This document shows positions 10,591 through 51,609 of a stretch of 64,000 bases of DNA, piece after piece; position 1 is the stretch's first letter, and the number at the start of each line of letters is the position of its first letter. Source of the stretch: Candidatus Poribacteria bacterium. Lineage in GTDB: Bacteria > Poribacteria > WGA-4E > WGA-3G. A model generated the notes under the pieces. It was not told the DNA's origin, ran no database searches, and saw only the letters and a program-made list of their open reading frames with translations. The stretch covers positions 640,001-704,000 of the forward strand of contig OZ243938.1 of the NCBI GenBank assembly GCA_965214095.1, in the 5' to 3' direction. A program made the position numbers and the translations under genes.

Positions 10591-10923
10591 TAGGGTTATT
10601 TATAGTAAAATCTGAAATTAACAATACACTTTACATTTAGAAAAACGCGTTTGTAGTCGCGCAATTCATTGCGCCTCTTACATTGTATGAATATGCAATT
10701 GGGACAATATGTTTCATTAATTGTCCGTTTTACTATAGTTTTCGGTTTTTCTGCTATATTTTTCACATTTCAATATAACAGCCTGTAGGTCGGGTAGAGG
10801 CACGAAACCCGACTTTATTGATGATAAATGGTTACATGTCGGGTTTCGTGCCTCTACCCGACCTACGATATAAACTCTTAGTAACATTCATCAATTGAAA
10901 ATTATTAAAACTAAATAACCCTG
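10591..10923. mobile_element. MITE (CAGGG-type) with REP pair, left TIR interrupted by a second MITE
   Basis: 9-bp direct repeat ATAATAATT at 10582-10590 and 10924-10932; GTAGGTCGGGTAGAGGCACGAAACCCGAC at 10785-10813 and exact inverted copy at 10838-10866. Confidence 0.85.
10603..10735. mobile_element. TA-flanked MITE (TAGTAAAA TIR) with GTAGTCGCGCAATTCATTGCGC REP
   Basis: TA|TAGTAAAA...TTTTACTA|TA; removing it restores AGGGTTATTTAGTTTTCGG. Confidence 0.8.
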
Positions 10924-10940
10924 ATAATAATTTGTGTAAC

Positions 10941-10969
10941 TTGACATTTCATATTTAACGTATTACTAT
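10941..10969 (+). promoter_or_regulatory. sigma70-type promoter upstream of the metal-binding protein gene
   Basis: TTGACA-17 bp-TACTAT. Confidence 0.6.
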
Positions 10970-10974
10970 ATACA

Positions 10975-11100
10975 TAAGCAATATTAAATAATAATCTTCC
11001 GATTTTTTTTCGGCAGATGACGACACCGAGTTCGTAGGGGCGGGGTTTCCCCGCCCGATATCAATGGACAATGTGCATATTTAATATTGAAACTTGCTTA
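10975..11100. mobile_element. MITE with TAAGCAA..TATTAAATA TIR and GTAGGGGCGGGGTTTCCCCGCCC REP
   Basis: Ends TAAGCAATATTAAATA / TATTTAATATTGAAACTTGCTTA (left end lacks 7 bp); REP at 11034-11056. Confidence 0.65.
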
Positions 11101-11196
11101 ATCATTGCTCATGCGAAAACTTGTTTCCACAACATTAGAAATCCAAAATTTACAAATTTATTGTCCAAATACAAAAATTAAGAAGGAGTTAAGTAT

Positions 11197-12162
11197 TTGA
11201 GATCACGTAATTTAAGAAAGCACCTAAGTTTGTTAATGTTGTTCATACTAATTATTGTAACTGGATGCCATGATAAAGTAGATGTTGATCATAAATCCGA
11301 TAGGAAATTGAACGTCGTCTCTACAATTGGTATGATTACTGATATAGTTGAAAATGTAGGACGAGATAGAATAGACATTACAGGTATTATCGGGGAAGGT
11401 GTTGACCCACACCACTACAAACCAACGGCAAGAGACACTGAAATTATGAAGGACGCAGATATTATCTTCTATAATGGATTACATCTTGAAGTTAGAATAA
11501 CCGGATCAGTCTTTAAAAAAATGGATGATAAAACGAAAGCAATCGCTGTAACAGATGGAATAAATCGTTCACAACTTCGGAAAACATCGGAGTTTATAGG
11601 TGGATATGACCCACATGTATGGCATGATGTCTCTTTGTGGATGAAGGCAACAGAAAAAATTCAAGACACATTAATAAAGAGAGATCCACAAAATGCTGAA
11701 TATTATCGTGCCAATGCAAAATATTACTTGACGCAGTTAGATTCTTTGCACTATGAGATGCAAAGACTTTCAGCACTGATACCAATAAAGCGACGGGTGC
11801 TTATAACAACTCATGATGCATTTGGTTATCTTGGAAAAGCCTACGGTTTTGAAGTGCGCGGTTTACTAGGTATAAATACGGAAGATGAAGTAAGCATTGC
11901 TGATGTTAGAGATCTCGCAGAATACATTATTGAAAATAGAATCTCAACTATGTTTGTTGAGACTTCCTCCCCGCCACGTGGTATCTTTGCTGTTCAAGCA
12001 GCTGTGAAGGCAAGAGGTTTCAACGTTAAAATTGGTGGTGGATTGTTTTCGGATGCAATGGGTACGCCCGGCACAACTGAAGGTACTTATATCGGGATGA
12101 TGCGACACAACATAAACATCATAGTAAGCATGCTTCAAACAGAGTTAGCATATCATGAGTAA
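11197..12162 (+). CDS. Zn/Mn ABC transporter substrate-binding lipoprotein (TroA/MntA family)
   Basis: Lipobox VTGC; GVDPHHY, YDPHVW, THDAFGY, LFSDAMG metal-ligand motifs. Confidence 0.92.
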   Translation: MRSRNLRKHLSLLMLFILIIVTGCHDKVDVDHKSDRKLNVVSTIGMITDIVENVGRDRIDITGIIGEGVDPHHYKPTARDTEIMKDADIIFYNGLHLEVRITGSVFKKMDDKTKAIAVTDGINRSQLRKTSEFIGGYDPHVWHDVSLWMKATEKIQDTLIKRDPQNAEYYRANAKYYLTQLDSLHYEMQRLSALIPIKRRVLITTHDAFGYLGKAYGFEVRGLLGINTEDEVSIADVRDLAEYIIENRISTMFVETSSPPRGIFAVQAAVKARGFNVKIGGGLFSDAMGTPGTTEGTYIGMMRHNINIIVSMLQTELAYHE

Positions 12163-12208
12163 TTGGTTGTTATAGTTCATAGAATTTCGTATCAAATTTA
12201 CTACTTTG

Positions 12209-12236
12209 AAAGACGGGTTACTATGCCCGTCTTTTT
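12209..12236 (+). terminator. Rho-independent terminator
   Basis: AAAGACGGG-loop-CCCGTCTTT followed by a T-tract. Confidence 0.75.
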
Positions 12237-12394
12237 GATTCCTATTCAAACAAATTTAGATTGTACAATTGACATTTGCTGAATAGACCTGAAATGTCTT
12301 TTTCGTTGACTTCTTTCGAAATATCAGTTATACTGAAATTATATTTAATCCTATTTGAAAACAAGACTATAACTATTTATAAAGAGGTATCCTG

Positions 12395-13012
12395 ATGATT
12401 ATCTGGTTTAGACGACACTGGCATGTTTCATTTATTGGACTTTTGGTATTAGGAATATTTATCATATCTTTTAATCAACAGTCAGAATCCCAAAATACTG
12501 AGAAAACATATAATATTGACTCTGTCCATTCATCCGTACTTTTCCGAGCGAAACACATGGGAGTTGCTTACAATTACGGCAGATTCAACGAATTCTCAGG
12601 TAATATCGTATTGGATGATACTGATATATCCAAAAGTAAAGTTGAATTTGAAGTGAAAAGTGCAAGTGTTGACACTGCAAATGCCAAACGTGACCAACAT
12701 CTAAGAAGTTCAGACTTCTTTAGTGTAAAACAGTTCCCAGTTATTACTTTCAAAAGCACAAATGTCAGTACCAAGGCTGAACAAGAAAATATGTTGGAAG
12801 TTACAGGAGAACTCAATCTGCACGGTGTGAAGAAATCAATAACCATTGATGTTGAAATAACGGGTAAGAAGTCTATCCCACAAACTGGTGAAGTAATCGG
12901 TTTTCATACAATCTTTGACATAAAACGGAGTGAATACGGAATTAATTTTGCAATGGACGGTGTCAATGATGACATCCAAATAATTATCAGTGTTGAAGCA
13001 GCAAATAAATAG
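12395..13012 (+). CDS. YceI family lipid/polyisoprenoid-binding protein
   Basis: YNIDSVHSSVLF..KHMG, SVDT..AKRDQHLRSSDFF, GELNLHGV motifs. Confidence 0.92.
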   Translation: MIIWFRRHWHVSFIGLLVLGIFIISFNQQSESQNTEKTYNIDSVHSSVLFRAKHMGVAYNYGRFNEFSGNIVLDDTDISKSKVEFEVKSASVDTANAKRDQHLRSSDFFSVKQFPVITFKSTNVSTKAEQENMLEVTGELNLHGVKKSITIDVEITGKKSIPQTGEVIGFHTIFDIKRSEYGINFAMDGVNDDIQIIISVEAANK

Positions 13013-20112: not shown

Positions 20113-20715
20113 ATGAAAAAATTATTGTCATGTCTATTGTTTGTAGGCATCATCGTTTCTGTTGGATGTGGACCAACCAAACAGGTCACTCGAATTGATA
20201 GCGATACCACCGTTGACTTATCTGGTCGTTGGAACGATACTGATTCCCGTTTAGTAGCGGACCAAATTATTGATGACTGTTTGAACCACACCTGGATTAA
20301 CGACCACGGTATTCAGACCAGTAGTAAACCTATTGTAATTGTCGGAGCTATTCGTAATAAGAGCAACGAACACATTGCAACACAAACATTCGTTGTTGAC
20401 ATTGAACAGGCATTTATCAATTCTGGAAAAGTTCGGACGGTCTCAAGTAAAAGTGAACGTGATGAGATACGAGAGGAACGCGCAGACCAGAGTGAAAACG
20501 CAGCTATTGAAACCATCAAACGGATGGGACGCGAATTAGGGGCAGATTATATGATGACTGGTCAAATAAATACTATTGAAGACCGCGAAGGTGGGAAACA
20601 AATTGTATTCTATAAGACTAATCTCACATTGACACACATTGAAAGCAATGAGAAAGTATGGATCGGGACAAAAGAGATTAAAAAGTTTATCGGGCGTAAA
20701 AAGTTTAAGATGTAA
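20113..20715 (+). CDS. Penicillin-binding protein activator LpoB-like lipoprotein
   Basis: Lipobox SVGC; DLSGRWNDTD, N.SNEHI, GADY motifs. Confidence 0.8.
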   Translation: MKKLLSCLLFVGIIVSVGCGPTKQVTRIDSDTTVDLSGRWNDTDSRLVADQIIDDCLNHTWINDHGIQTSSKPIVIVGAIRNKSNEHIATQTFVVDIEQAFINSGKVRTVSSKSERDEIREERADQSENAAIETIKRMGRELGADYMMTGQINTIEDREGGKQIVFYKTNLTLTHIESNEKVWIGTKEIKKFIGRKKFKM

Positions 20716-20827
20716 TACCATTTCTAATAGAAAACATCGCATTTTTGTAGCACAAACTGCCAGTTTGTGCCCTCCTTCAAGACATTCTTAACAGATGTTA
20801 ATGGGATAAACATCTATAGAAATGGTA
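20716..20827. mobile_element. 112-bp TACCA-type MITE with GTAGCACAAACTGCCAGTTTGTGC REP (copy 1)
   Basis: TACCATTTCTA...TAGAAATGGTA; near-identical, same-length copy at 23807-23918. Confidence 0.85.
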
Positions 20828-20914
20828 TAAGATGAACTACAACTAATTTGTTGAAGAGGTGGTTGGGCGGGTAATGATTCCCGCCCTCTCTTATTATTTA
20901 ATAGCAGTGATTTT

Positions 20915-23918: not shown

Positions 23919-23935
23919 TTACATTCATCAAAAAT

Positions 23936-26592: not shown

Positions 26593-26726
26593 TAGTAAAA
26601 ATCATAATTATTTACACACGACGGTAGGTTCGGTTTCCTAACCGAACCGGTGTTTGTTCAGTCTCATAGATGCGGTTAGGAAACCGCATCTACCGGGGAG
26701 TGTGAACGTATTTTTACATTTCACTA
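26593..26726. mobile_element. TA-flanked TAGT-type MITE carrying an inverted GTAGG..CGGTTTCCTAACCG REP pair
   Basis: TA|TAGTAAAAAT...ATTTCACTA|TA; REPs at 26624 and inverted copy ending 26693. Confidence 0.8.
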
Positions 26727-33743: not shown

Positions 33744-34230
33744 CAGGGGTATTTAGTTTTAAGGATTCATAATCATTGAGGTTAACTTTACATTTGTAAA
33801 ATAAAACCGAAGATATTACCACCACGCATTTGCATGGCTTCTGATTTGGACACGCGTGTCCAGCCGATTTCGTTAGCATATTTGGGTAGTGGTTCTTCAA
33901 CTGCGGACCGTTCAGACAAAATCGTTTCCAAATGTCAATTAGAGTGATATAGTGTTGATACTTTTAGGCAATTGGTAATTTTTTCTGTACACGAATCCTG
34001 TCTATGACTGGGTTTTCCCGATCAAAAAATTACCAATTTTACCAATTAGTAATTTAACGTAAATTGAGTAAATATTGGATATTTATAGTGAACATTGAAA
34101 ATAATAGGACAAAGTCTCTGTAAGAGCGATCTCCGAATCGCGAGTTAACTCAGTGATACTCGGGAATCGGAGTTCCCTCCTACATCTCAAAATGTCCCAT
34201 TAATTCAAGAGTTTACTATAAATAACCCTA
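33744..34230. mobile_element. Composite CAGGG-type MITE with nested elements
   Basis: CAGGGGTATTTAG...TAAATAACCCTA with 9-bp direct repeat TGTGGAATT (33735-33743, 34231-34239); nested TA-flanked MITE 34086-34218 and inverted repeat 33970-34038. Confidence 0.8.
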
Positions 34231-34281: not shown

Positions 34282-34287
34282 ACCTGT

Positions 34288-38694: not shown

Positions 38695-38731
38695 TTATAT
38701 TGATTTTTTCTGGCACTTATAATATAATCTA

Positions 38732-40070: not shown

Positions 40071-41029
40071 AAATGTGGAGATTGGCAATGGATAGAGAAC
40101 AAATTCTGCAAAAATTTGAAACCTTACGACAATGGGGCAGTAGAGGTGAACGAGCACCACACAAACCCTTGTTGGTTCTCTATGCCATTGGTAAATTGCT
40201 ACGCGGTGAAGATAGACTTATTCCTTATACTGATGACATTGAGGAAAATCTCAAGAAATTGCTGAGAGAATTTGGTCCGAGGAGAAATACTTATTATTCA
40301 CATTTCCCATTTTGGAGACTGCAAAATGATGGAGTCTGGGAAGTCACCAATGCAAATAATATACGGCAAACAGCAAGTGGTGATGCTTATGTTACAGATT
40401 TAAGAGAAAACAACGTATCAGGTGGCTTCAATGAGACAATCTCTGAACAACTACAAAACGATTCTGATCTTGCAGTTGAAATAATTCATAGCCTTTTAGA
40501 TGCTCATTTTCCAACTTCAATTCACGAAGACATCCTACAGTCAGTTGGTATTGAACTTCCCTTACAAGCATTTGATACGAGAACGCGCACATCTAATTTC
40601 CGAACTAGCATTCTTAGAGCTTATGAGTATAAATGTGCTGTCTGTGGGTTTGATGTAAAATTGGGTGATTCTCCTGTAGCATTGGAAGCTGCACATATCA
40701 AATGGCAAAGGGCAGACGGCCCTGACATTGAAGTAAATGGATTGGCTCTCTGCTCGCTGCATCATAAGTTATTTGACCGTGGTGCATTCACATTGTCAAG
40801 ACAACTACAAATCTTAGTCTCTGATGATGCACATGGGACAACGGGTTTTCAGGAGTGGCTGATGGATTTTCACGGCAACACGATCAATTTTCCACAGAGA
40901 CGTTCCTACTATCCAGAGGAAGAGTTTATCGGTTGGCACGTCAAAGAGGTGTTTCAAGGACATTATCGTGAATTGAAATCAGCAGGAATTGAAAATACTC
41001 AACATCATAAGAAAAATAACCCTGACTGA
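40067..41029 (+). CDS. Sulfur-binding-domain (SBD) HNH endonuclease, ScoMcrA-related phosphorothioate-reading family
   Basis: N-terminal RAPHKPLLVL...HFPFWRLQNDGVW; C-terminal CAVCG..EAAHI..NGLALCSLHHKLFD. Confidence 0.8.
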   Translation: MKMWRLAMDREQILQKFETLRQWGSRGERAPHKPLLVLYAIGKLLRGEDRLIPYTDDIEENLKKLLREFGPRRNTYYSHFPFWRLQNDGVWEVTNANNIRQTASGDAYVTDLRENNVSGGFNETISEQLQNDSDLAVEIIHSLLDAHFPTSIHEDILQSVGIELPLQAFDTRTRTSNFRTSILRAYEYKCAVCGFDVKLGDSPVALEAAHIKWQRADGPDIEVNGLALCSLHHKLFDRGAFTLSRQLQILVSDDAHGTTGFQEWLMDFHGNTINFPQRRSYYPEEEFIGWHVKEVFQGHYRELKSAGIENTQHHKKNNPD

Positions 41030-43049
41030 TTCCACAGGTATGCACAAGAATATGAGAAACTATAAATCAAAATCAAACAAGTATGGATTAACTCTAAACT
41101 TTTTGGAGGTAGTTTTTGGGAAAAAAAGACTTTCTCTCCAAAAAGCAGAATACTCACATGATTTGTTTGTTGAATATAAGGAAAATCCGAATTTTTATAT
41201 CCACAGATATGATGATGGAATGTACGTCTGGGAACTTTGTCCAACAGACGAAGTATTGCCCAATTCTTTCAGCGAAGCAGAGGTAACAATAGAACACCAT
41301 GCTCCAATTTTCACCAAAATTATAGAACGTGCTATTGTTACTTTTTTTATTAATAATAATTATAAAGTTTCCAAACGTCGATATTCTTCAATATGGGAAG
41401 TCGAACTTAAAAAGGAAGATGAAGGAAGTTTTAATGCTTTGGTTGTACGACCAACTATAGTGTTTTCCTTAAGAAACTTGTACTCAAAATTGGAAAGTAG
41501 ACAAGTTGTTGCTCTCACTATTAGAAAACGAGGAAAACCAATTTTTACTGGAAGTGAAGAAGAAATTAAAACACAATTAACAGACACACGTGGATTGACA
41601 CGTAACCGTGATGAAAATTTCGTTGCATCACGGGACAATCTAAAAAGATACCTAGAAGCTACAGGGCAGATGCAAGACTATGAAAGTTTCCTTAGTGAAA
41701 TGGAAAAACCACAAAACGAATTTTCATATCTTAAACAATGTCCAGCATCCTTTAATAAAATTGCTCCAAATTTGCACCTTCCAAATGAATTGGAAGTCTC
41801 AAACTTTTTACTTGTTAATCTTCCAAGTGCTTCTTTTGAATCTACTGTGATTGACAAACCAAAATACTATTTTTACAACGAAGGGACAAAAAGAGGATAT
41901 TATAACCAGGTTGTCTCTGAATTGAGACCTTATTCATACGATCTCTTTAGAAATAGAAAGTTGAATATCCTTGTAGTCTCTCCTGATGAATATGAGGGCA
42001 GTGTTGACGAGTATATGGTAACATTGAAGAAAAAGTTGCGAGATTTATTTCATTTGAAAGATGTTAAATTCCACTTCACGATGGTGAGGTTACCAGAAAC
42101 TTATCTTAGTGCTTTAAATAAGATAGATGTAAAGGATTACGATATTGCAATTATTATTTTATCTCAACGAGACAAAGATATTGAAAGTTCGCTTTCTCCA
42201 TATTTTTTGACAAAAGCAAAGCTATTAAACCAGCGACTTCCAACTCAAGATCTAACGATAGAGGTTCTGAGAAAGAGTGATTATATTATAGACAATAATA
42301 TTGCTCTAAATGTCTATTCTAAACTTGGTGGAATAGCGTGGACGATAGAAAAGTCCGAGAAAAACATTTCAGAGCTAATTATAGGGATTGGGTCTACAGT
42401 TGATGATAGTGGGGAACGAATTATTGGTTTTGCCAATGTTTTTGACTATAATGGAGCGTACCTTGTTGGAGACTGTAGCCAATTAAGTACATTAAACGAA
42501 TATACGAAAAATCTTGAAAATTATTTGGTAGAGACTTTAACACAATCATTTGAAAAGAAAGGTTTTACAGAGAGAGATAGTGTTAGACTCATATTCCATC
42601 TGTTTAAAGAAGCAGGAAAAAAGCATGAATTGAAGTCCATTGAAAATGTTCTAAAGCGTTTTAAAGATTACAATATACAATTTAGTTTAGTGCACCTTAG
42701 TTATGGGCACAATTTTAGAATGTTCAAGAATTGGGGAAATGATCGTCCCGATCGTGGCACATTTGTACAACTGTCTTCGCGACAAGCATTGCTTCATTTG
42801 GGTGGTAGATCAGTTGTACCAATACAAATACGGTTAGATAGAAGGTCAGAATATAGAGATCTTTACGAAATCACAAGACAAGTTCTTTATTTCACTCACC
42901 TTTCATATCGCACTTTTATTCCACCAAGTCAACCAGTTACCGTTAAATATCCAAATTTAATGGCGAAAATGGTTAGTGAACTCAAGAAAGTTCCAGGATG
43001 GGATTATTCAATTCTGAATCATTTGAACGAAAAGCTCTGGTTCATTTAA
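40989..43049 (+). CDS. Long prokaryotic Argonaute, catalytically inactive (long-B-like); true start probably 41040 or 41052
   Basis: MID pocket PYFLTKAKLL..LPTQ..NIALNVYSKLGG; PIWI with LIIGIG, RLIFHLFK, RGT, QVLYFTHLSY, PVTVKY; DEDX acidic residues replaced. Confidence 0.88.
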   Translation: MKILNIIRKITLTDSTGMHKNMRNYKSKSNKYGLTLNFLEVVFGKKRLSLQKAEYSHDLFVEYKENPNFYIHRYDDGMYVWELCPTDEVLPNSFSEAEVTIEHHAPIFTKIIERAIVTFFINNNYKVSKRRYSSIWEVELKKEDEGSFNALVVRPTIVFSLRNLYSKLESRQVVALTIRKRGKPIFTGSEEEIKTQLTDTRGLTRNRDENFVASRDNLKRYLEATGQMQDYESFLSEMEKPQNEFSYLKQCPASFNKIAPNLHLPNELEVSNFLLVNLPSASFESTVIDKPKYYFYNEGTKRGYYNQVVSELRPYSYDLFRNRKLNILVVSPDEYEGSVDEYMVTLKKKLRDLFHLKDVKFHFTMVRLPETYLSALNKIDVKDYDIAIIILSQRDKDIESSLSPYFLTKAKLLNQRLPTQDLTIEVLRKSDYIIDNNIALNVYSKLGGIAWTIEKSEKNISELIIGIGSTVDDSGERIIGFANVFDYNGAYLVGDCSQLSTLNEYTKNLENYLVETLTQSFEKKGFTERDSVRLIFHLFKEAGKKHELKSIENVLKRFKDYNIQFSLVHLSYGHNFRMFKNWGNDRPDRGTFVQLSSRQALLHLGGRSVVPIQIRLDRRSEYRDLYEITRQVLYFTHLSYRTFIPPSQPVTVKYPNLMAKMVSELKKVPGWDYSILNHLNEKLWFI

Positions 43050-43967
43050 ATGTTAATAATTGAAGAATTTAAAAGATATAAACAGTATTATCTTGATCGG
43101 TCAAGTCCAAAGCAAGAGATATTTTACAAGTTTTTAAATAGAGAGACGTTGTTAGATTTTCTAACTAAAGAAGATCTGACAGATATTGAACAGATGTGTC
43201 TTTCCATTTTCTGCACTGATGTCCCTTCTAGAAAAAAATTGATAGAAAGGAAAAGGAAGGAAAAAGTAATTGGAGGAATGCACTACACAAGGAATTTAAT
43301 TGAACTCACAGCGATGGCGATTGATGATTTGAAACAAGAAGAGGATAATTTGAAAACATATTGCCAAGACAACCCTACAAGACATTTTTTTATACTCAAT
43401 CAATTGTTTCCTGATCTTACATTCTATCGAGCGGATCCACAAGGAAGTGTTGACCAAATTGCATTACATCTCTGCCAAAAAGACTTACCAAAAGAAGGAT
43501 GGAAAACTCTTTTGATCAATGCACTTTACGAAATATCAGATTTGAATGACTTCTATGTGGTTGAACAAGGATATCACCAAGCAATGGATGATCATCCCAT
43601 TATCCACCAAGTAAACGATATCCTTTATGTGAAAAATGACTGCGAGAGGTTTGTTAAAAAAACTGAACGTAATGTAAAACTCGCTATAGGGCTAGTGCTC
43701 TTTCTACTGCTGGTGGGTATATGTTTTTTAGTTCCAACAATTCGCGAAAAATGGAATGAAGTTGAACCAATTTTTGGCGTAACTGGGGTTTTCTTATTTC
43801 TAATCGTAGAATTAATTTTTATTTTTCGCGGAAAAATTCTAGACCGAACAAAATTCACTAAGATGCTTATAGAAAAGATCACCAACTTTGTATTTAAAAA
43901 GAAGGGATGTAATCGTCTACAGTTAAAAGAAAGTTTATGTCGCCTAGTAAATGTGGGTGAAAAATAA
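43050..43967 (+). CDS. Argonaute-associated protein with two C-terminal TM helices (putative effector)
   Basis: ATG immediately follows the pAgo stop; TM segments LAIGLVLFLLLVGICFLV and IFGVTGVFLFLIVELIFIF. Confidence 0.75.
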   Translation: MLIIEEFKRYKQYYLDRSSPKQEIFYKFLNRETLLDFLTKEDLTDIEQMCLSIFCTDVPSRKKLIERKRKEKVIGGMHYTRNLIELTAMAIDDLKQEEDNLKTYCQDNPTRHFFILNQLFPDLTFYRADPQGSVDQIALHLCQKDLPKEGWKTLLINALYEISDLNDFYVVEQGYHQAMDDHPIIHQVNDILYVKNDCERFVKKTERNVKLAIGLVLFLLLVGICFLVPTIREKWNEVEPIFGVTGVFLFLIVELIFIFRGKILDRTKFTKMLIEKITNFVFKKKGCNRLQLKESLCRLVNVGEK

Positions 43968-44107
43968 AACTTCTATTGTAAGTGTTATTATTCACTACTA
44001 TTGTTGTGTAAGTATGATATAACAAATTCTCTGTTATCCTTCATTCATACCTTCAAATAAGAAATGTTTGTCACTTTCCTATCAACACCACCCACCAAAA
44101 ACTTCCC

Positions 44108-44137
44108 TTGACAAACCGCCAGTCCCTCAAGTATAAT
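44108..44137 (+). promoter_or_regulatory. Consensus sigma70 promoter; homologous copies near 45597, 49514 and 52149
   Basis: TTGACA-18 bp-TATAAT in four homologous copies. Confidence 0.75.
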
Positions 44138-44174
44138 CAATAAAACAACCGGAAACCGAGGCACAACACACAGC

Positions 44175-44266
44175 ATGGCACAATATGACGAAATCGTGAA
44201 GCATCTGATGCACCAGTACGCCAATGAGTTCGCCATGCTATCCTTTAGCACACCCGATGTCCAAGT
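44175..44266 (+). pseudogene. 5' fragment of Rpn gene
   Basis: MAQYDEIVKHLMHQYANEFAMLSF matches 45665; breaks after GATGTCCAAGT. Confidence 0.85.
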
Positions 44267-44269
44267 TTT

Positions 44270-44515
44270 CAGGGTTTTTTGTTCAATATTATTCACAATC
44301 GTTAATCTTCTTGTGGGTATGTATTCCTATTTGTCTGAAGCATGATTAGTAGATGGACAGGATAGATACTTGGTGTTTCTAAGTGCCACTGAAAAGAAAA
44401 AGGTAATCATTTAGACAGGCACTTCGGCGTGACAAACTCTAATCCCGGGGAATGCCAAAAGGCATTCATACCGTTGATTTGAAAATCTACTAATCCTGAA
44501 AATCCTGGTTCAGAG
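44270..44515. repeat. CAGGG-derived element with inverted AATCCTG-type repeats; related copies 46883-47270 and 51408-51515
   Basis: TGTCTGAA..GATTAGTAGAT..CAGGAT ... AATCTACTAATCCTGAAAATCCTGGTTCAGA. Confidence 0.7.
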
Positions 44516-44532
44516 AATAAAAAGAGGAAATC

Positions 44533-44778
44533 ATGCAAGAATCTCCATTTTACGAACTAATTATACAACGTGGTGTTCAACAAGGTGCACGTGAAAATTC
44601 CATCAAGAATATCCTATCTGTGCTCACTGAGCGTTTTCCACAGAGCGATGTGCAACCAGTGGCGGAAGCACTTGAATCTATTCAAGACATTGATCGTTTG
44701 ACAGAGCTTCATCGAACAGCAGTCCGGACATTTAACGTTGAAACGTTCCTGCAAGAAATTGACAAACAGGAAGTGTAA
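44533..44778 (+). CDS. Stand-alone Rpn C-terminal domain (RpnS-like short form)
   Basis: MQESPFYELIIQRG.. homologous to the C-termini of both full Rpn genes; RBS AGAGGA. Confidence 0.75.
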   Translation: MQESPFYELIIQRGVQQGARENSIKNILSVLTERFPQSDVQPVAEALESIQDIDRLTELHRTAVRTFNVETFLQEIDKQEV

Positions 44779-44868
44779 TACCAAATCAACCTAAATCGTA
44801 GGGGCAGGGTTCCCCTGTCCATCCGTGTTCTCAGTATCAAGAATAATACAGAGCTCGTTAATTTGGTA
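44779..44868. mobile_element. TACCA-type MITE with GTAGGGGCAGGGTTCCCCTGTCC REP (duplicate near 48697-48786)
   Basis: TACCAAAT...ATTTGGTA; REP at ~44798. Confidence 0.7.
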
Positions 44869-44958
44869 TAATACTTCCTCTGTCTGAACGATCTCCGAAC
44901 GGATGACAAACATAGACTAATCCGTCAACGCATCAATCCCACACACGGCAAATATCCA

Positions 44959-45466
44959 TCAGGACTCGTTGCTATAGCGGGTGTCTTCGCTAACGACTTC
45001 TTCTGTGGTTCCGTTCAAAAACTCTGATAGCAGTTGCGTTTTTTTACCGCCACAGTCGTTCAGATGGACAACAGTGACTTCCTCAGGGTCACTTGCTGCC
45101 TCTATATCTTCAAATATCAGCATCGTCATAGAATGGGTTTTGTATCTTGAGAAGCTGCTGGAATGCTTTGACCTCCTCTTTCATCTCAGCGATTTTGTGT
45201 ATCCTCTCAAGATACCTATACTACACATGTGTGCGAGCATTTTCCACACGGAGATATAGATCCAGTTTCTTTTTCTCATTGGTATTGAGATCACTTTTCT
45301 TAATCTTGCCATCTTCAAGCTGCTGCTTGTATTCCTCTCCGTCTCTCAACCAGTTCCGAAGAGTCTGGTAAGTGATCCCACAATAGGCTGCAATGCGATG
45401 CAGCGGGAGATTGGATACTTCCACAACAGTCACGATTCGTTCTGCGATAATCGGTGTTAATTTCAT
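44959..45466 (-). pseudogene. HTH protein resembling phage terminase small subunit; internal TAG plus a 1-bp insertion
   Basis: MKLTP..IAAYCGITYQTLRNWL..RVENART; homology to copy 2 continues past the TAG; extra base near 45113. Confidence 0.65.
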
Positions 45467-45664
45467 AATAATGATATTATAGCATGAAAAAAGCCACTAA
45501 CAGGTGGCAGCTCCGAATTCTGTTTACGCTGCTATATTTTAGAAACAGATTTTTGATTTCAGTAAGAATATTGGTTCCCCTCAGTTGAATCTTTCCTTGA
45601 CAAATCACCGCCCCATCAAGTATAATCAATAAAACAACCAAAGAACCGAGGCATAACACACAGC

Positions 45665-46549
45665 ATGGCACAATATGACGAAATCGTGAAGCATCTGATG
45701 CACCAGTACGCCAATGAGTTTGCCATGCTATCCTTTGGCACACCCGATGTCCAAGTATTAGAGACACTTGACACCGAACATCAAAAGATTAAGGTGCATC
45801 GCAATGATATGACATTTAAAGTGCTATGGCACAATGAGACAGTCCTTCTACATATAGAGGTGCAAACGGAGGATAGTAGAGATAAACCGATGCCGTTCCG
45901 GATGCTCTCTTATGCGAGTGAACTTCTATTACGTCATGAACTTCCCGTATATTCGGTAGTGATATATTTGAGTCCAAATGCAGGGCAGACCGACCCAGGC
46001 GGTTATAGTTATGGAAATGATGTGTTCGGTTTGCAGCATAAATATCAGGTAATTCGGTTGGCGGATTTAGAAGGGGAAGCGTTTTTGGAAGCAGCATCGG
46101 TTGGACTGCTACCGTTTACGCCTTTAATGAAGCCACCAGAGGGTATCAACACAGAAGCCTGGTTGCAAAGATGTGTTGAGAAGACAGAAGCCGCACCCGT
46201 TGACACACAGACGCGTGGAACACTGTTGTTTGCCCTATCTCTATTAGGTGGTTTAGTCCATGACCCAAGTTTTTTTGAAAAACTTATAACGGAGGAAATC
46301 ATGCAAGAATCTCCTTATTATGAACTGCTTGCGCAGCGAATCTATGAACGAACTGCCCGTGAAACTTCTATCAATTATATTCTATCTGTGCTTACAAAAC
46401 GTTTTCCGTTGAGCGATGTACAACCTGTAGCGGAAGTACTGGAATCTATTCATGACCTTGATAGATTAACAGAGCTGCATCTCACTGCAATTGACATACC
46501 AAGTGTTGAGACATTCTTACAAACAATTGTTAGAACTTATAGCGAGTAA
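45665..46549 (+). CDS. Rpn family (YhgA-like PD-(D/E)XK) nuclease
   Basis: YD...K.L, D..F...LLHIEVQT..MPFRMLSY, PVYSVVIYL, GLLPFTPLM, IMQESP motifs. Confidence 0.88.
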   Translation: MAQYDEIVKHLMHQYANEFAMLSFGTPDVQVLETLDTEHQKIKVHRNDMTFKVLWHNETVLLHIEVQTEDSRDKPMPFRMLSYASELLLRHELPVYSVVIYLSPNAGQTDPGGYSYGNDVFGLQHKYQVIRLADLEGEAFLEAASVGLLPFTPLMKPPEGINTEAWLQRCVEKTEAAPVDTQTRGTLLFALSLLGGLVHDPSFFEKLITEEIMQESPYYELLAQRIYERTARETSINYILSVLTKRFPLSDVQPVAEVLESIHDLDRLTELHLTAIDIPSVETFLQTIVRTYSE

Positions 46550-46702
46550 GAGCTAAGAACTCAAATTAAATAGGTATCTGAAGTGGCAAGAATGGGACAT
46601 AAAGTCTATCCTTTTCTTTCCTTATTTTACCGAATCCTTATGTTTTACTCAATATGACTTCTTACATAAATCACCTTGGCAAGAATGAAATCACGCCCCC
46701 TA

Positions 46703-46760
46703 ATGCAACCCAAAATCACCGTCATCGGCAGTGCAAACGTTGACCGCGTCATCTGCACAG
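46703..46760 (+). pseudogene. Duplicated 5' fragment of rbsK
   Basis: ATGCAACCCAAAATCACCGTCATCGGCAGTGCAAACGTTGACC.. matches the rbsK start at 52217. Confidence 0.85.
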
Positions 46761-46786
46761 TCTTTAGGAAAAGGTACAACACACAG

Positions 46787-46878
46787 CATAGCACAATATG
46801 ACGAAATCGTGAAGCATTTGATGCACCAGTACGCCAATGAGTTCGCCATGCTATCCTTTGGCACGCAGGATGTCCAAG
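46787..46878 (+). pseudogene. 5' fragment of Rpn gene (ATG mutated to ATA)
   Basis: Same breakpoint as the 44175 fragment. Confidence 0.8.
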
Positions 46879-47068
46879 TCTTCAGGGTTTTTTGTTCAAT
46901 ATTATTCACAATCGTTAATCTTCTTGTAGGTATGTCCTCCTATTTGTCTGAACCAGGATTAGTAGATGGACAGGATAGATACTTGGTGTTTCTAAGAGCC
47001 ACTCAAAAGAAAAGGTAATCATTTAGACAGGCACTTCGGCGAGACAAACTCTAATTCCGGGGAATGCC

Positions 47069-47187
47069 TAATGAAGATTAATTTATTAAACGGGTAATTC
47101 TCATTTTCTCAAACCCGGTAGGAGCGGTTTCCTAACCGCTCCGGACTTCTCAAGGAAATTACCTGATTTATTTCTTAATCTTCATCA
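47069..47187. mobile_element. 119-bp MITE (TAATGAAGATTAA TIR) carrying GTAGGAGCGGTTTCCTAACCGCTCC REP
   Basis: TIRs TAATGAAGATTAA/TTAATCTTCATCA; absent from the homologous site at 44450-44467. Confidence 0.85.
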
Positions 47188-47320
47188 GGCGTTCATACCG
47201 TTGATTTCTTGATTTGAAAATCTACTAATCCTGAAAATCTACTAATCCTGAAAATCCTGGTTCAGACAATAAAAAGAGGAAATGATGAGATCTACTCAGT
47301 TTGCGTCCGTCCTGATATTA

Positions 47321-48394
47321 TTACTTTGCCTCTTTTGACACAGTCTCCTCACCTTTCTGAACCACATTCTCATCAGAAAGCACATCCGAAGCAGGCGCAT
47401 TCAGTGCCGCAACCTTAGGCGGCGCAAACGACTGCATTTCAGATGAACCAATCGCATCAGACGACTCCACACCCAGCATTTCCAAAGTATTATGCTCCTT
47501 CAAAGAATCCAACTGATCCCGATAAACAGGATCACGCGTCAACGTAAACAAACCCGCTACCGTCTTAACAATCGCATTCGATAACGACACCAAATCCCTC
47601 GGATCCTTCGCAGAATCTCGCGCCTCAACCAACTTTTCATAATGATCCGACAACGCCTGAACCTGCTCCACTACCGTCGACATCGGTATACCCGTCAACG
47701 CCTGCTGAAAAAGTTCACGCTCATCATCCCAAACACACCGATATTTCTTCGGAAAACGAGGATTAGACGATTTCAAATATACTAACTGCGGATGAAGATA
47801 CCTACGAAGCCGATCCATACCGCAAACATCCTCAAACTTCCATGACGCAAACGGCGACAAATCATCATCCGAAAAAATCAAATCAGTAATCACCGCTGTC
47901 GTAGACAATCCACGTGCATGCCCCCGTACAGCTACCTCCCGCAACGAAGGCAAAAGACACTTACGATAATACGGATAAAGCAGATCGTCCATCCATTCCC
48001 GACACGCTTCTTTGTAATCAATGAAAATGCCGGTATAGTCACGAAACGGTTCCCGGTCATAATAATTTCTATAACCATCGTGAATTTTTCTATAGTTAAC
48101 TTCTCCTTTGATACCCACACCGATTTTGTCCTTATCTTCCACACACTTACGATACCCAATCAAACACATCATCCAAGACATATCTTTCATCGTCATATAA
48201 CCCAAACCAAAAAATTCCTCCTGCACCGACAAAGGCATCTCTGATGGAAGACTTTGCTCCAAAACACACGGATGATACAACGCAAATGCCTCCTCTAATT
48301 CCAGAAAACCAACCCCCATCGCTTCAAACATATTTTCAATAGATGCCGGTTCTTCTACATGTTTTGTCCAATAAGACTTCAACTTCTTATTCAT
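47321..48394 (-). CDS. Hypothetical protein, C-terminal part DUF2280-like (phage)
   Basis: FPKKYRCVWDDERELFQQALTGIPMSTVVEQVQALSDHY resembles the DUF2280 pattern from memory; GGAG RBS; atypical G/T-rich third positions. Confidence 0.55.
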   Translation of the reverse strand: MNKKLKSYWTKHVEEPASIENMFEAMGVGFLELEEAFALYHPCVLEQSLPSEMPLSVQEEFFGLGYMTMKDMSWMMCLIGYRKCVEDKDKIGVGIKGEVNYRKIHDGYRNYYDREPFRDYTGIFIDYKEACREWMDDLLYPYYRKCLLPSLREVAVRGHARGLSTTAVITDLIFSDDDLSPFASWKFEDVCGMDRLRRYLHPQLVYLKSSNPRFPKKYRCVWDDERELFQQALTGIPMSTVVEQVQALSDHYEKLVEARDSAKDPRDLVSLSNAIVKTVAGLFTLTRDPVYRDQLDSLKEHNTLEMLGVESSDAIGSSEMQSFAPPKVAALNAPASDVLSDENVVQKGEETVSKEAK

Positions 48395-48632
48395 TTCTCA
48401 CTCCTATAAATCAAAATTTGATGATGTCAGAGACGTAGTCTCCTTACAAAGTTCAAGAATCCGTTCACGATTATTGACTTCCGCGCCACTTTCTAACTTC
48501 ACACTATGTTTTCGTACCACTCCTTTTTGACCACGCACTACACGCTTACACGCCAAATAATGCTTACGAGACCCACGAGTCCGCCTGCCGAACTCACGAA
48601 GCAAACATTCATAAGGTGTATCAACGGCATTA

Positions 48633-50231
48633 AACAGCAGTCCGGACATTCAACGTTGAAACGTTCCTGCAAGAAATTGACAAACAGGAAGTGTAATACC
48701 AAATCAACCTAAATCGTAGGGGCAGGGTTCCCCTGTCCATCCGTGTTCTCAGTATCAAGAATAATACAGAGCTCGTTAATTTGGTATAATACTTCCTCTG
48801 TCTGAACGATCTCCGAACGGATGACAAACATAGACTAATCCGTCAACGCATCAATCCCACACACAGCAAATATCCATCAGGACTCGTTGCTATAGCGGGT
48901 GTCTTCGCTAACGACTTCTTCTGTGGTTCCGTTCAAAAACTCTGATAGCAGTTGCGGTTTTTTACCGCCACAGTCGTTCAGATGGACAACAGTGACTACC
49001 TCAGGGTCACTTGCTGCCTCTATATCTTCAATATCAGCATCGTCATAGAATGGGTTTTGTATCTTGAGAAGCTGCTGAAATGCTTTGACCTCCTCTTTCA
49101 TCTCAGCGATTTTGTGTATCCTCTCAAGATACCTATACTACACATGTGTGCGAGCATTTTCCACACGGAGATATAGATCCAGTTTCTTTTTCTGTTTAGT
49201 ATTGAGATCACTTTTCTTTATCTTCCCATCTTCAAGCTGCTGCTTGTATTCTTCTCCGTCTCTCAACCAGTTCCGAAGAGTCTGGTAAGTGATCCCACAA
49301 TAGGCTGCAATGCGATGCAACGGGAGATTGGATACTTCCACAGCAGTCACGATTCGTTCTGCGATAGTTGGTGTTAATTTCATAATAATGATATTATAGC
49401 ATGAAAAAAGCCACTAACAGGTGGCAGCTCCGAATTCTGTTTACGCAACATTATTTTAGAAACAGATTTTTGATTTCAGTAAGAATATTGGTTTCTCTCA
49501 GTTGAATCTTTCCTTGACAAATCACCGCCCCATCAAGTATAATCAATAAAACAACCAAAGAACCGAGGCATAACACACTGCATGGCACAATATGACGAAA
49601 TCGTGAAGCATCTGATGCACCAGTACGCCAATGAGTTTGCCATGCTATCCTTTGGCACACAAGATGTCCAAGTATTAGAGACACTTGACACCGAACACCA
49701 AAAGATTAAGGTGCATCGCAATGACATGACATTTAAAGTGCTATGGCACAATGAGACAGTCCTTCTACATATAGAGGTGCAAACACAGGATAGCAGAGAT
49801 AAACCGATGCCATTGCGGATGCTCTCTTATGCAAGTGAACTCCTGCTACGTCATGAACTTCCCGTGTATTCGGTGGTGATATATTTAAGTCCAAATGCGG
49901 GGCAGACCGACCCGGGTGGATACAGTTATGGAAATGATGTGTTCGGTTTGCAGCATAAATATCAGGTAATTCGGTTGGCGGATTTAGAAGGGGAGGCGTT
50001 TTTGGAAGCAGCATCGGTTGGACTGCTACCGTTTACGCCTTTAATGAAGCCACCAGAGGGTATCAACACAGAAGCATGGTTGCAAAGATGTGTTGAGAAG
50101 ACAGAAACCGCACCCGTTGACTTACAAACACGTGGAACGCTGTTGTTTGCCCTATCTCTATTAGGTGGCTTAGTCCATGACCCAAGTTTTTTTGAAAAAC
50201 TTATAACGGAGGAAATCATGCAAGAATCTCC
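48633..50231. repeat. ~1.6 kb direct repeat, copy 2
   Basis: Matches 44715-46314. Confidence 0.92.
48877..49383 (-). pseudogene. TerS-like HTH gene with a single in-frame TAG (49138-49140)
   Basis: ORFs 49138-49383 and 48877-49101 are in frame, joined by YRYLERIHKIAE. Confidence 0.7.
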
Positions 50232-50454
50232 ATTTTACGAACTAATTATACAACGTGGTGTTGAACGAGGTGCACGTGAAACTTCCATCAATAATATTCT
50301 ATCTGTGCTCACTGAGCGTTTTCCACAGAGCGGTGTGCAACCAGTGGTGGAAGCACTTGAATCTATTCAAGACCTTGATCACTTGACAATATTGCTTCGT
50401 AAAGCAGTCAAGACTCCCAGTGTCAAAGAATTCTTACAAGCAATTGATTCATAA
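49582..50454 (+). CDS. Rpn family nuclease, second intact copy
   Basis: N-terminal ~215 aa near-identical to the 45665 copy; divergent C-terminus. Confidence 0.88.
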   Translation: MAQYDEIVKHLMHQYANEFAMLSFGTQDVQVLETLDTEHQKIKVHRNDMTFKVLWHNETVLLHIEVQTQDSRDKPMPLRMLSYASELLLRHELPVYSVVIYLSPNAGQTDPGGYSYGNDVFGLQHKYQVIRLADLEGEAFLEAASVGLLPFTPLMKPPEGINTEAWLQRCVEKTETAPVDLQTRGTLLFALSLLGGLVHDPSFFEKLITEEIMQESPFYELIIQRGVERGARETSINNILSVLTERFPQSGVQPVVEALESIQDLDHLTILLRKAVKTPSVKEFLQAIDS

Positions 50455-50486
50455 AACACCTTAACAGAATTGAAATCACGCCCCTA

Positions 50487-50544
50487 ATGCAACCCAAAAT
50501 CACCGTCATCGGCAGTGCAAACGTTGACCGCGTCATCTGCACAG
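50487..50544 (+). pseudogene. Second duplicated rbsK 5' fragment
   Basis: Identical to 46703-46760. Confidence 0.85.
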
Positions 50545-50571
50545 TCTTTAGGAAAAGGCACAACACACAGC

Positions 50572-50662
50572 ATGGCACAATATGACGAAATCGTGAAGCA
50601 TCTGATGCACCAGTCCGCCAATGAGTTGCCATGCAATCCTTTGGCACACCCGATGTCCAAGT
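50572..50662 (+). pseudogene. Third 5' Rpn fragment
   Basis: Same breakpoint, followed by CAGGGTTATTTA. Confidence 0.8.
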
Positions 50663-50665
50663 TTT

Positions 50666-50970
50666 CAGGGTTATTTATGGTGAAGTATGAAATTATATCT
50701 ACACTTTCTTTCTACGGTAGGCAAGGTTTCCTCACCTCGTCCAAGCAATGTGTTAAATCACTATAGTTTGGACAATTTCTCTCGGTTGCATACTGATATT
50801 TCTAGCATTTTCAACATTTTGTGAGTTTTCAATAGGATAATAACTTGACGAAAAAGTGTTAGAATATCAAAATGAGCAGCCCCAGCGGGGCGAAATGTGT
50901 CCAGCACATCCTGAACAAACGATTTATAGCCCCAGCGGGGCGACAGGTGTATCATTCAAAGTTCACCATA
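50666..50970. mobile_element. Nested MITE stack
   Basis: CAGGGTTATT|TA|TGGTGAA...TTCACCA|TA containing a degenerate GTAGG REP and a TAGTTTGGACAATTT element. Confidence 0.7.
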
Positions 50971-51017
50971 ATTAACCATAGTATGAATCCTATAAGGATA
51001 AAATCCGACCTTTACCT

Positions 51018-51404
51018 ATGAAAAAAGCACTTGTAATCTGTGTACAATTTATCGCTTCAGTTGTAATCGGGTTGATATGGCATTTCCTAATCGTACCATT
51101 CCTTTTTTATAACACCTTTGCATCTAGTGTTATGAAAGGTAGAATGCGAGGAGATCCAATTGAATTTTATGGCATGGCTCAAGAGATAGTTTTGTATGCA
51201 AAGAAAGGATTTGCCCCTACTTTAGCAGAAAAAATCTGTACGATTTTTGCTGCGGTGGGGATACACGGTGTTTGGATATTTCCATTATTAGGTATTTTGC
51301 TTGGAATCCGACATCTCCTTTCTCAAAAAAACTATTCTGAAGATAAACTGATCAAAAGCAAAAATCAGATGAATGCAAATGCTGAAAATACAACTTTGGG
51401 ATAA
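51018..51404 (+). CDS. Small 2-TM membrane protein
   Basis: 128-aa ORF with two hydrophobic segments, enclosed by MITE ends. Confidence 0.6.
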   Translation: MKKALVICVQFIASVVIGLIWHFLIVPFLFYNTFASSVMKGRMRGDPIEFYGMAQEIVLYAKKGFAPTLAEKICTIFAAVGIHGVWIFPLLGILLGIRHLLSQKNYSEDKLIKSKNQMNANAENTTLG

Positions 51405-51609
51405 GATAATCCTGAAAATCTACTAATCCTGCAAATCCTGGTTCAAACAAATAGGAATGCAAACCAATAAAAAAATAACGTTTGTGAATGATATTGAATA
51501 AAAAACCGAAAACTATGGTGAAACATAAAAATAAATGAACATAATAACGACACCAAATCCTTCGGATCCTTCACAGATAAGACTTCAACTTCTTATTCAT
51601 TTCTCACTC

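Follow-up and report, generated by a model that had tools for sequence, protein, structure and literature searches.

Repeated insertion of TA-duplicating MITEs at one TA in the terminal repeat of an ISAs1-type MITE of Candidatus Poribacteria

Introduction

The insertion sequence IS231A reportedly inserts into the terminal repeats of Tn4430 generating a duplication of 10-12 bp, which is said to have been shown experimentally by Hallet et al. in 1991 and 1994. The elements described here resemble this pair as one transposable element finds its preferred target in another's terminal inverted repeat. They differ from it (IS4-type guest, Tn3-type host) in the families involved, in the duplication of TA and in being known from sequence alone. 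IS1397 and ISKpn1 insert into the palindromic units of enterobacterial repeats and likewise home to a fixed site within a short dispersed repeat; there, however, the host repeat is no transposon end and the guest belongs to the IS3 family. For plants, PMC5172404, referring to Jiang and Wessler (2001), describes nested MITEs (Stowaway and Tourist) that arose by independent insertions with some families being preferred hosts, and Stowaway-type elements duplicate TA. The poribacterial elements share with these the insertion of MITE into MITE by independent events and the TA-duplicating guests as in Stowaway, but they reside in a bacterium, the host is derived from ISAs1 and insertions fall on one dinucleotide of the terminal repeat instead of being spread over the host. 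Finally, the IS630 family inserts at TA and duplicates it, and for ISY100, a bacterial member of the Tc1-mariner family with inverted-repeat ends and cut-and-paste transposition, many TAs were used in vitro, 34 of 39 products being at TA (PMC2170065). As ISY100, the guests described here use and duplicate TA and have inverted-repeat ends; unlike for these guests, ISY100 has no reported preference for the end of a second element.

The locus presented here is a clear case of a transposon preferring another one as landing site, which is not unprecedented and leaves the view of transposon behaviour unchanged. It is well defined: a single dinucleotide of a 20-bp repeat is hit, the transposase families concerned are two and unrelated, and the pattern recurs in several genomes of a sponge-associated, uncultivated phylum. 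It could be used as a simple system in which to study how IS630-type enzymes choose their target, and it also bears on whether an occupied ISAs1 end still works. Transposons that prefer transposons limit genome damage, build layered repeat clusters, drive rearrangements and break assemblies. Mobile DNA of Poribacteria is apparently undescribed, as papers combining 'Poribacteria' and 'MITE' contained nothing on the subject judged by titles and abstract openings; those matching the first ten bases of the repeat were, among the matches listed, unrelated by title.

The host element is an ISAs1-type MITE

The ends of ISAs1-family elements start with CAGGG and their target duplications comprise 8-10 bp (ISfinder). 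The CAGGG element acting as host is a MITE, a non-autonomous derivative of an insertion sequence of the ISAs1 family. Its terminal inverted repeats of approximately 20 bp start with CAGGGTTATTTAG, CAGGG being replaced by TAGGG in four ends, and the two ends are unlike internally, reading GTTTTAAGAATT on one side and GTTTTCGGTTTTT on the other. The basic form has a length of 148-254 bp. The target duplication is 9 bp, the flanking 9-mers matching in at least 7/9 positions in 14 paired elements and perfectly in 10 of these. In the window, i.e., the whole stretch of 64,000 nucleotides analysed, the copies are devoid of ORFs, their hairpin cores are exchangeable and their two ends are unlike on the inner side. 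The transposase was found outside the window between host-type repeats, in a full-length relative of 1,314 bp at locus L010 of the genome scan described below (OY282386.1, Candidatus Poribacteria), which carries the same repeats at both ends (at 2001 and 3314). Its ORF of 388 aa (L010:2018-3181, minus strand) matches the NCBIfam model NF033564, ISAs1 family transposase (E 1.4e-60, 205 bits, cutoff 70), and also Pfam DDE_Tnp_1_assoc and DDE_Tnp_1. This element is similar to the ISAs1 family in its size (IS1548, an ISAs1-family member, has 1,316 bp; PMC7096684), in encoding one ISAs1 transposase gene, in its CAGGG ends and in its 9-bp duplication, whereas the elements in the window differ as ORF-less derivatives with unlike inner ends. 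Another ORF starting at a repeat (L028) encodes, by eye from its translation, a sigma-54-type response regulator and no transposase.

Copies of the host are present in at least 45 Poribacteria loci. A cyanobacterial origin of the window was considered and rejected: the cyanobacterial HIP1 octamer has 0 occurrences in it, its repeat families have counterparts in Candidatus Poribacteria assemblies (95-97% over 93-121 nt), and its gene content, with sulfatase, WD40 and TPR proteins, is in keeping with these. In a plasmid collection E1 and the left part of E2 (Table 1) were without match, and a 30-nt repeat query yielded 16 chance matches only, in unrelated genera.

The guest elements are small TA-flanked MITEs

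Duplication of TA is a hallmark of IS630/Tc1-mariner transposition. The guests in the window have lengths of 86-134 bp, termini of the type T[AG]GT[AG]AA and inverted repeats of roughly 28 bp; including the other Poribacteria loci, guests in the repeats span 86-200 bp (133 bp twice, 86, 99 and 200). TA is present on both sides of the guest in E2, at 26593, at 34086 and in L013, L034, L060, L094 and L075. Host and guest are both small and present in many copies, with inverted-repeat ends, a target duplication and no ORF of 90 aa or more. A search of the 46 ORFs of the window and of 73/110 ORFs (at least 150 aa) of 34 Poribacteria loci, covering approximately 200 kb, detected no IS630-type transposase and no full-length element with ends of the type T[AG]GTGAA. 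The copy at 26593 resides at an ordinary intergenic site and shares 95% identity over 105 nt with the copy in L034, which likewise lies outside a repeat. As a control, it demonstrates insertion at other TAs too; such ordinary sites were also found in L013 and L060.

Insertions in the terminal repeats of the window

Table 1. Coordinates of host elements, guest elements and their flanking duplications in the window.
Feature	Position	Strand	Remarks
E1, uninterrupted ISAs1-type MITE, 220 bp	10259..10478	+	both terminal repeats intact
E1, 9-bp target duplication GATTCAGGG	10250-10258 and 10479-10487		
E2, ISAs1-type MITE, 333 bp including insert	10591..10923	+	left (GTTTTCGG-type) repeat interrupted, right intact
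E2, 9-bp duplication ATAATAATT	10582-10590 and 10924-10932		
Nested TA-MITE, 133 bp, ends TAGTAAAA...TTTTACTA	10603..10735	+	TA at 10601-10602 and 10736-10737
TA-MITE, 134 bp	26593..26726	+	TA both sides; intergenic, outside any ISAs1-type repeat
E3, 487-bp unit, ISAs1-type repeat at each end	33744..34230	+	interior not recognisable as family
E3, perfect 9-bp duplication TGTGGAATT	33735-33743 and 34231-34239		
TA-MITE, 133 bp, ends TAGTGAAC...GTTTACTA	34086..34218	-	TA at 34084-34085 and 34219-34220
Paralogous third host element, one piece	44270..44352	+	15-bp deletion removes target TA; second such copy 46883-46965
ISAs1-type repeat, outer half CAGGGTTATTTA	50666..50677	+	end of duplicated gene fragment; TGGTGAA directly after
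TA-MITE, 86 bp, ends TGGTGAAG...ATCACTA	50678..50763	+	TA at 50676-50677 and 50764-50765
Alternative reading of this insert, 291-bp unit, ends TGGTGAAG...AGTTCACCA	50678..50968	+	then TA (50969-50970) and ATTAACCAT
Inner half of split repeat (TA-GTTTTCGGTTTTTT...) and 85 bp of element body, inverted	51429..51515	-	TA 51514-51515 abuts TGGTGAA end
Remnant of TGGTGAA-ended element, 25 bp	51516..51540	+	cut off by truncated paralog of ORF 47321-48394

The original prediction was that TA-type MITEs had inserted four times, by events suggested to be independent, at the same TA inside the CAGGG terminal repeat, and that one family might thus immobilise the end of the other or act as its parasite. 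All four junction strings on which it was based are present in the window at the positions given. The first case (10601) is fully confirmed as a textbook nested insertion. It reads T-AGGGTTATT-TA, the insert and TA-GTTTTCGG, and the flanks of E2 without the insert and one TA restore an intact repeat as present 130 bp upstream at 10459-10478 on the minus strand. An uninterrupted relative of E2 is L065:1795-2018 (77% over 206 nt, same GTTTTCGGTTTTTCTGCTATATTT). In the second case the TA-MITE at 34086 abuts the outer ten bases of the right repeat of E3 and the junction at 34219/34220 is exact, while the host repeat is not continued in the inner flank, GGATATT-TA. Reading this inner flank by eye as diverged host body was unsupported, z being at most 1.4 against bodies with GTTTTCGG-type ends in shuffles.

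The remaining two junctions, at 50676 and 51514, were found to be the two halves of one repeat, since in the two uninterrupted paralogs at 44270 and 46883 the left half (50556-50676) is directly continued by what corresponds to 51429-51514 in reverse complement; the inverted segment 51514-51429 is matched at 80-81% by 44264-44352 and by 46877-46965. The arrangement would have arisen either by one insertion followed by inversion or by two insertions followed by recombination. Events at this TA number three to four rather than a clear four. The 86-bp insert belongs to the same family as the copies at 26593 and L034:2039-2177 (50678-50762 versus L034: 86% over 64 nt). In the alternative reading, the ATTAACCAT flank looks like the outer half of the host repeat in inverted, degenerate form (7/9 bases, by eye). 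That the DNA following the 86-bp insert is diverged host body was unsupported (best z 2.5, with 11 of 300 shuffles scoring at least as high). Mis-assembly at repeated MITEs that mimics the inversion would fit a region full of repeats of 80-96% identity and the contig breaks of related assemblies at precisely this kind of junction, as in L041 and L056, which are contig ends, but both junctions are precise TA joins and the sequence itself shows no error, making this explanation unlikely.

The inserted elements differ as had been proposed: those at 10603 and 34086, both of 133 bp, share 84 of 143 aligned columns, and the third has TGGTGAA ends with a different body. At least three different guest sequences inserted independently at the TA forming bases 11-12 of the host terminal repeat.

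Preference for the repeat TA

In the window AGGGTTATTTA occurs six times versus 0.00 expected, and followed by T[AG]GT it occurs three times (10592, 34215 on the minus strand, 50667) versus 0.00 expected in 100 shuffles. Three of the four to five TA-MITE insertions with readable junctions are located on the seven repeat TAs, the window containing 3,983 TAs (binomial P approximately 2e-8 to 5e-8). One might argue that guests insert at random TAs and are retained just in harmless DNA such as another MITE, and every guest seen indeed lies between genes. However, the enrichment persists if only the 732 intergenic TAs are considered (P approximately 3e-6 to 9e-6), and, although each host has approximately 19-22 TAs, all three in-host insertions in the window fell on the same TA (chance approximately 0.003), rendering survivorship as sole explanation quite improbable.

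The 8-bp word around the target TA, TATTTAGT, occurs four times in the window, in 4/4 cases inside repeats; a modest sequence preference would therefore act as targeting of element ends. TTATTTA sites are occupied in 3/7 cases within repeats versus 0/10 outside (Fisher P = 0.051), marginally indicating that the outer half alone is insufficient for targeting. Compared with the background TA rate, as the original prediction had suggested, independent hits at one position of the terminal repeat are enriched in the window, but the rate elsewhere is low: among the matches listed, 0/26 assessable partner ends of uninterrupted seeds outside the window were interrupted (95% upper bound 11%).

The same junction in other Poribacteria

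A genome scan listed at least 113 loci, at least 45 from Poribacteria and 68 being chance matches in unrelated taxa; its pattern was unspecific and sampled only intact ends of the GTTTTAA type, and the source genome of the window was not among the loci. A second tip within one mismatch was found in 22/34 Poribacteria versus 5/46 non-Poribacteria loci (loci of at least 2 kb, among the matches listed). At least seven of the 45 listed Poribacteria loci, from at least six other assemblies, contain the same junction; since the scan pattern for interrupted seeds required the junction, these seeds yield no rate. Clean cases are L094, with outer half, TA, an insert TGGTGAA...CTACCA, TA and GTTTTAGGGG, and L075, with TA, insert, TA and GTTTTACTG. 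L103 and L104 together form one element of 1,078 bp with the duplication AGAGACACC on both sides and one end interrupted. As in E3, the inner flank is not host repeat in L069 and L104.

The locus formed by L041 and L056 is interrupted at both ends, whereas its ortholog in another species, L047, has both repeats uninterrupted with flanks of 85-86% identity and the same duplication, showing that the host copy was in place before the guest arrived. Guest insertions at the host TA followed the establishment of the host copies, in the window as well as in six other Poribacteria assemblies. As the inserts differ and this ortholog is uninterrupted, descent of all cases from one composite ancestor, the outcome that would have overturned the original prediction, is excluded. 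One old host-plus-guest insertion multiplied by the ISAs1 transposase would be consistent with the host-type 9-bp duplications kept around the guest-bearing units in E3 (9/9) and L075 (7/9), which imply that, in principle, occupation of an end need not have prevented a host from moving. With inserts varying in sequence and length, host copies carrying different duplications and the uninterrupted L047, this origin appears largely refuted and is very unlikely.

Target choice and its consequences

Probably, an IS630-like TA-inserting transposase strongly prefers this TA in the terminal repeat of the ISAs1-type MITE. The predicted guest transposase would favour the sequence or shape around TTATT-TA-GTTT. 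In some hosts both ends were hit, leaving a guest between two 12-base host tips, and recombination between guests can rearrange a locus, as may have happened at 50.6-51.5 kb.

Guests bracketed by two inverted tips are present in L075 and in the L041/L056 locus, and in degenerate form at 50666-50981 and 34077-34227. These structures might also suggest that the 12-base tip belongs to the guest, CAGGGTTATTTA plus T[AG]GTGAA being the end of a chimeric element moved by the ISAs1 transposase. Such an origin is improbable, since the far flank in E2 and L094 is the inner repeat half and no inverted tip, L075 retains 47 bp of host flanked by one full and one partial guest copy, which fits two hits, and the flanking 9-mer of L041/L056 is the same as in the uninterrupted ortholog, indicating that this locus changed in place.

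Going beyond the preference of an IS630-like transposase for this TA, it might be speculated, with considerable doubt, that an IS630-like lineage of Poribacteria evolved recognition of the ISAs1 repeat, homing to and capping the ends, with double hits replacing the interior and keeping the 12-base tips. If true, chimeric elements would result, possibly mobilised by either transposase, and ISAs1 activity could be throttled. In a bolder variant, a single insertion into the hairpin stem formed by single-stranded DNA of a host MITE would at once produce a single guest bracketed by both tips. Finally, a guest preference for the GTTTTCGG-type over the GTTTTAA-type end, as suggested by E2, the split repeat, L094 and L104, is contradicted by L041, in which the junction lies at the GTTTTAA-type end of its ortholog.

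The nested elements and their families

Short units with inverted CAGGG repeats at their two ends lie between 9-bp direct repeats, and three such copies (E1, E2 and E3) are present in the window (Table). The flanking 9-mers of 14 paired units from the window and related loci agree in at least seven of nine positions, and they are perfect in ten of the 14. The basic unit of this host element has 148-254 bp, and its two ends differ on the inside, one being continued by GTTTTAAGAATTATC and the other by GTTTTCGGTTTTTCTG, with a hairpin core that is variable. Among the 46 window ORFs scanned no transposase was found. In contig OY282386.1 (scan locus L010), an element of 1,314 bp carries host-type repeats at both ends. 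The 388-aa ORF in this element is matched by 'ISAs1 family transposase' of NCBIfam (NF033564; E 1.4e-60, 205 bits, cutoff 70) as well as by Pfam DDE_Tnp_1_assoc and DDE_Tnp_1. Since this relative with the same repeats encodes an ISAs1 transposase, the CAGGG element is classified, on sequence grounds, as an ISAs1-family MITE. Ends of this family start with CAGGG and the target duplications have 8-10 bp (ISfinder). Moreover, the size of the L010 element fits to that of the ISAs1-family member IS1548, reported as 1,316 bp in the available text of PMC7096684.

The guests have a length of 86-134 bp in the window and of up to 200 bp elsewhere, with imperfect inverted repeats starting T[AG]GT[AG]AA and TA on either side. 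Removal of 10603-10735 and one TA from E2 leaves flanks identical to the intact repeat at 10459-10478, and the closest uninterrupted E2 relative among the matches listed (L065:1795-2018) has the same inner half. The guest insertion in E2 is read as a 2-bp TA duplication, which is described as a trait of the IS630 family (available text of PMC2170065). No guest-matching transposase was found in the 46 window ORFs or in 73 of the 110 ORFs of at least 150 aa at 34 Poribacteria loci, the other 37, mostly overlapping frames, having been dropped by eye, so that the TA duplication and the ends are the two features suggesting membership in the IS630 family. Guests are also present at ordinary TAs, i.e., at 26593 in the window and in L013, L034 and L060.

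Insertions in the window

The original prediction counted four insertions into the terminal repeat, at 10601, 34219, 50676 and 51514, and all four junction strings quoted for them are present in the window. Compared with 0.00 copies expected in 100 dinucleotide-preserving shuffles, AGGGTTATTTA has six copies in the window, and three copies are followed by T[AG]GT (again 0.00 expected). The case at 10601 is a clean nested insertion. At 34219 the junction is exact and a perfect 9-bp duplication surrounds the whole 487-bp unit; its inner flank shows no recognisable host end (z ≤1.4 in comparisons with the nine bodies that follow a GTTTTCGG-type end).

The two remaining junctions are halves of one repeat. 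The left half (50556-50677) consists of a duplicated gene fragment and CAGGGTTATTTA; joined to the reverse complement of 51429-51515 it is contiguous in two paralogs (44159-44352 and 46772-46965), and TGGTGAA ends adjoin both halves. Several features lie in between (Table), and the query 50678-50762 has 86% identity over 64 nt to the guest of L034. This arrangement fits a single insertion with a later inversion that ended at an element end, and it also fits separate guests in two host ends that then recombined with each other; it may also be a mis-assembly. As two histories fit, the predicted total is reduced from a firm four to three, perhaps four or more, guest events in the window.

Both paralogous hosts (44270-44285, 46883-46898) have the same 15-bp deletion in the terminal repeat, which takes out precisely the target TA and the bases around it; either a mutation common to the duplicated segment or the scar of an earlier guest could account for it. 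The region 44099-50676 contains segmental duplications (44710-46529 versus 48628-50446, 94% over 1,820 bp), and neither Pfam nor NCBIfam gave a match for the paralogous ORFs at 45665-46549 (294 aa) and 49582-50454 (290 aa). A unit of the first 110 bp of the paralogous gene plus the ISAs1-type MITE is present in three copies, at 44159, 46772 and 50556.

Related loci in other Poribacteria

A genome scan with the pattern AGGGTTATTTAKDKTDAA yielded at least 113 loci, 45 of those listed being from Candidatus Poribacteria assemblies, and no relative was found in the plasmid collection. The 68 non-Poribacteria loci among the matches listed look like chance matches; a second tip, i.e., the outer 12 bases of the host repeat with at most one mismatch, is present in 5/46 of the non-Poribacteria compared with 22/34 of the Poribacteria loci of at least 2 kb among the matches listed, with roughly three of the former estimated to occur by chance. 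Further repeat families are common to the window and L010 (23802-23922, 97%), L034 (26591-26695, 95%) and L050 (50858-50950, 96%). A Poribacteria-like genome, rather than a cyanobacterial one, is the most likely source of the window, and the sulfatase, WD40 and TPR genes agree with such an origin.

Seven of the 45 Poribacteria seeds among the matches listed (seeds being the host ends matched by the pattern), from six assemblies, are interrupted by guests of two end classes (Table), and the host repeat resumes after the insert in L094 and L075. L103 and L104 belong together as opposite ends of a single 1,078-bp element, which has AGAGACACC on both sides and is interrupted at one end. L041 and L056, two contig ends of one assembly that both read tip, TA, TAGT, flank a locus that holds an uninterrupted 281-bp element in another species (L047), with flanks of 86% and 85% identity and the same 9-mer. 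Since the ortholog is uninterrupted and the 9-mer is shared, the comparison shows that the guest came later than the host. In the window, the two 133-bp inserts are identical in 84 of 143 aligned columns and the third insert differs from them in ends and body. The differing inserts had been taken as a sign of independent insertions, and this holds: the inserts are unlike in sequence and, at L041/L056, the guest followed the host, which together exclude a single composite ancestor.

The L041/L056 locus and L075 have guests between two inverted host tips, and a degenerate form of this is seen at 50666-50981. In L075, a full guest copy and a partial one are separated by 47 bp of host, and two hits with subsequent deletion between direct copies would fit. 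Within L075:508-3775, this doubly hit element has a Cas4-Cas1 fusion gene on one side and a small toxin-antitoxin-like pair on the other, and cas6 adjoins.

Enrichment and site choice

The window contains 3,983 TA dinucleotides, 732 of them outside ORFs taken as genes, and seven are repeat TAs (bases 11-12 of the host repeat). Of the 4-5 guest insertions whose junctions could be read, three are at these seven TAs. Compared with background TAs in the window, insertion at the repeat TA is enriched, in line with the targeting originally proposed (binomial P ~2e-8 to 5e-8 for all window TAs, ~3e-6 to 9e-6 for intergenic TAs only). Each host offers ~19-22 TAs and the same one is used by all three in-host insertions. 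Survivorship of guests alone does not explain their positions, as it gives no account of the use of one TA among ~20 per host. A preference for a sequence of ~8 bp would give the impression that the ISAs1 end is targeted, because all four window copies of the 8-mer TATTTAGT are inside repeats and TTATTTA, with 16 window copies, six of them in repeat context, is occupied at none of the ten outside (Fisher P = 0.051). A guest bias for the GTTTTCGG-type end seemed likely and is contradicted by L041.

The scan gives no insertion rate, as interrupted seeds were chosen by pattern and intact seeds comprise GTTTTAA-type ends only. The 38 intact seeds among the matches listed give a fairer sample through their partner ends (26 assessed, four elements truncated, eight loci too short), and none of the 26 assessable ends is interrupted (95% upper bound 11%). 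With 3/7 repeat ends interrupted in the window versus 0/26 partner ends (Fisher P ~0.006, hand calculation), the window is unusually rich in interrupted ends.

IS231A homes to the Tn4430 terminal repeat and IS1397 to dispersed palindromes. Furthermore, nested MITEs with preferred hosts are already known from plants (available text of PMC5172404). A limited literature search, judged by titles and abstract openings, gave no description of Poribacteria MITEs. The nesting in the ISAs1 end is a new, well-defined example of known transposon-into-transposon behaviour.

Other small elements and neighbourhood

A further MITE family has two window copies that are 93% alike, and a Poribacteria locus resembles one of them at 97%. 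ISAs1-type MITEs and TA-MITEs have the same hairpin module, GGTAGGTGCGGTTTCCTAACCGCAC with its complement, as their core; such cores seem to be swapped or to move independently. The module TAGTCGCGCAATTCATTGCGCC has five window copies and is duplicated internally in a 172-bp element. Two more nested families occur, one with ends TTGTCTGAACCAGGATTAGTAGAT, inside which an element with ends ATGAAGATTAATTTATT is nested, and the ISAs1-type MITE cores of L027, L034 and L038 are packed with yet other repeats. A 65-bp hairpin element lies directly beside E1, so that four or more small elements are clustered in 10250-10930. The window genes include sulfatase, WD40 and TPR, and 34261-43967 is likely a defence island.

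Table. Positions of elements, inserts and neighbouring genes
Feature	Position or locus	Detail
E1	10259-10478	9-bp repeat GATTCAGGG
E2	10591-10923	9-bp repeat ATAATAATT
E3	33744-34230	9-bp repeat TGTGGAATT
Between split halves, first	50678-50763	complete 86-bp guest
Between split halves, second		TA, then ~200 bp of other repeat
Between split halves, third		second guest-like end AGTTCACCA, then TA
Between split halves, fourth		small ORF
TAGT-type guests in seeds	L041, L048, L056, L104
TGGT-type guests in seeds	L069, L075, L094
Further MITE family	20714-20829, 23798-23921, L010:41-161	ends ATACCATTTCTAA...TTAGAAATGGTAT, TA-type flanks
Hairpin module GGTAGGTGCGGTTTCCTAACCGCAC	10315-10423, 26611-26706, 47100-47150; L022, L058, L075
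Two more nested families	46944-47269, 44330-44513, 51407-51450; L048
ATGAAGATTAATTTATT-ended element	47062-47194
65-bp hairpin element	10487-10551	ends GGGTGTGTAAAGTT...AACTTTACACACCC, GATTCAG both sides
172-bp element	22285-22456	ends TAGTGAAT...GGTTTACTA, no TA on either side
Likely defence island	34261-35073	DUF4007 protein
Likely defence island	35212-38694	1,160-aa ORF without family
Likely defence island	39240-40070	PAPS-reductase-like protein
Likely defence island	40067-41029	phosphorothioated-DNA-binding restriction endonuclease (NF045808, E 9e-107)
Likely defence island	40989-43049	Piwi-domain Argonaute-like protein
Likely defence island		305-aa ORF without family
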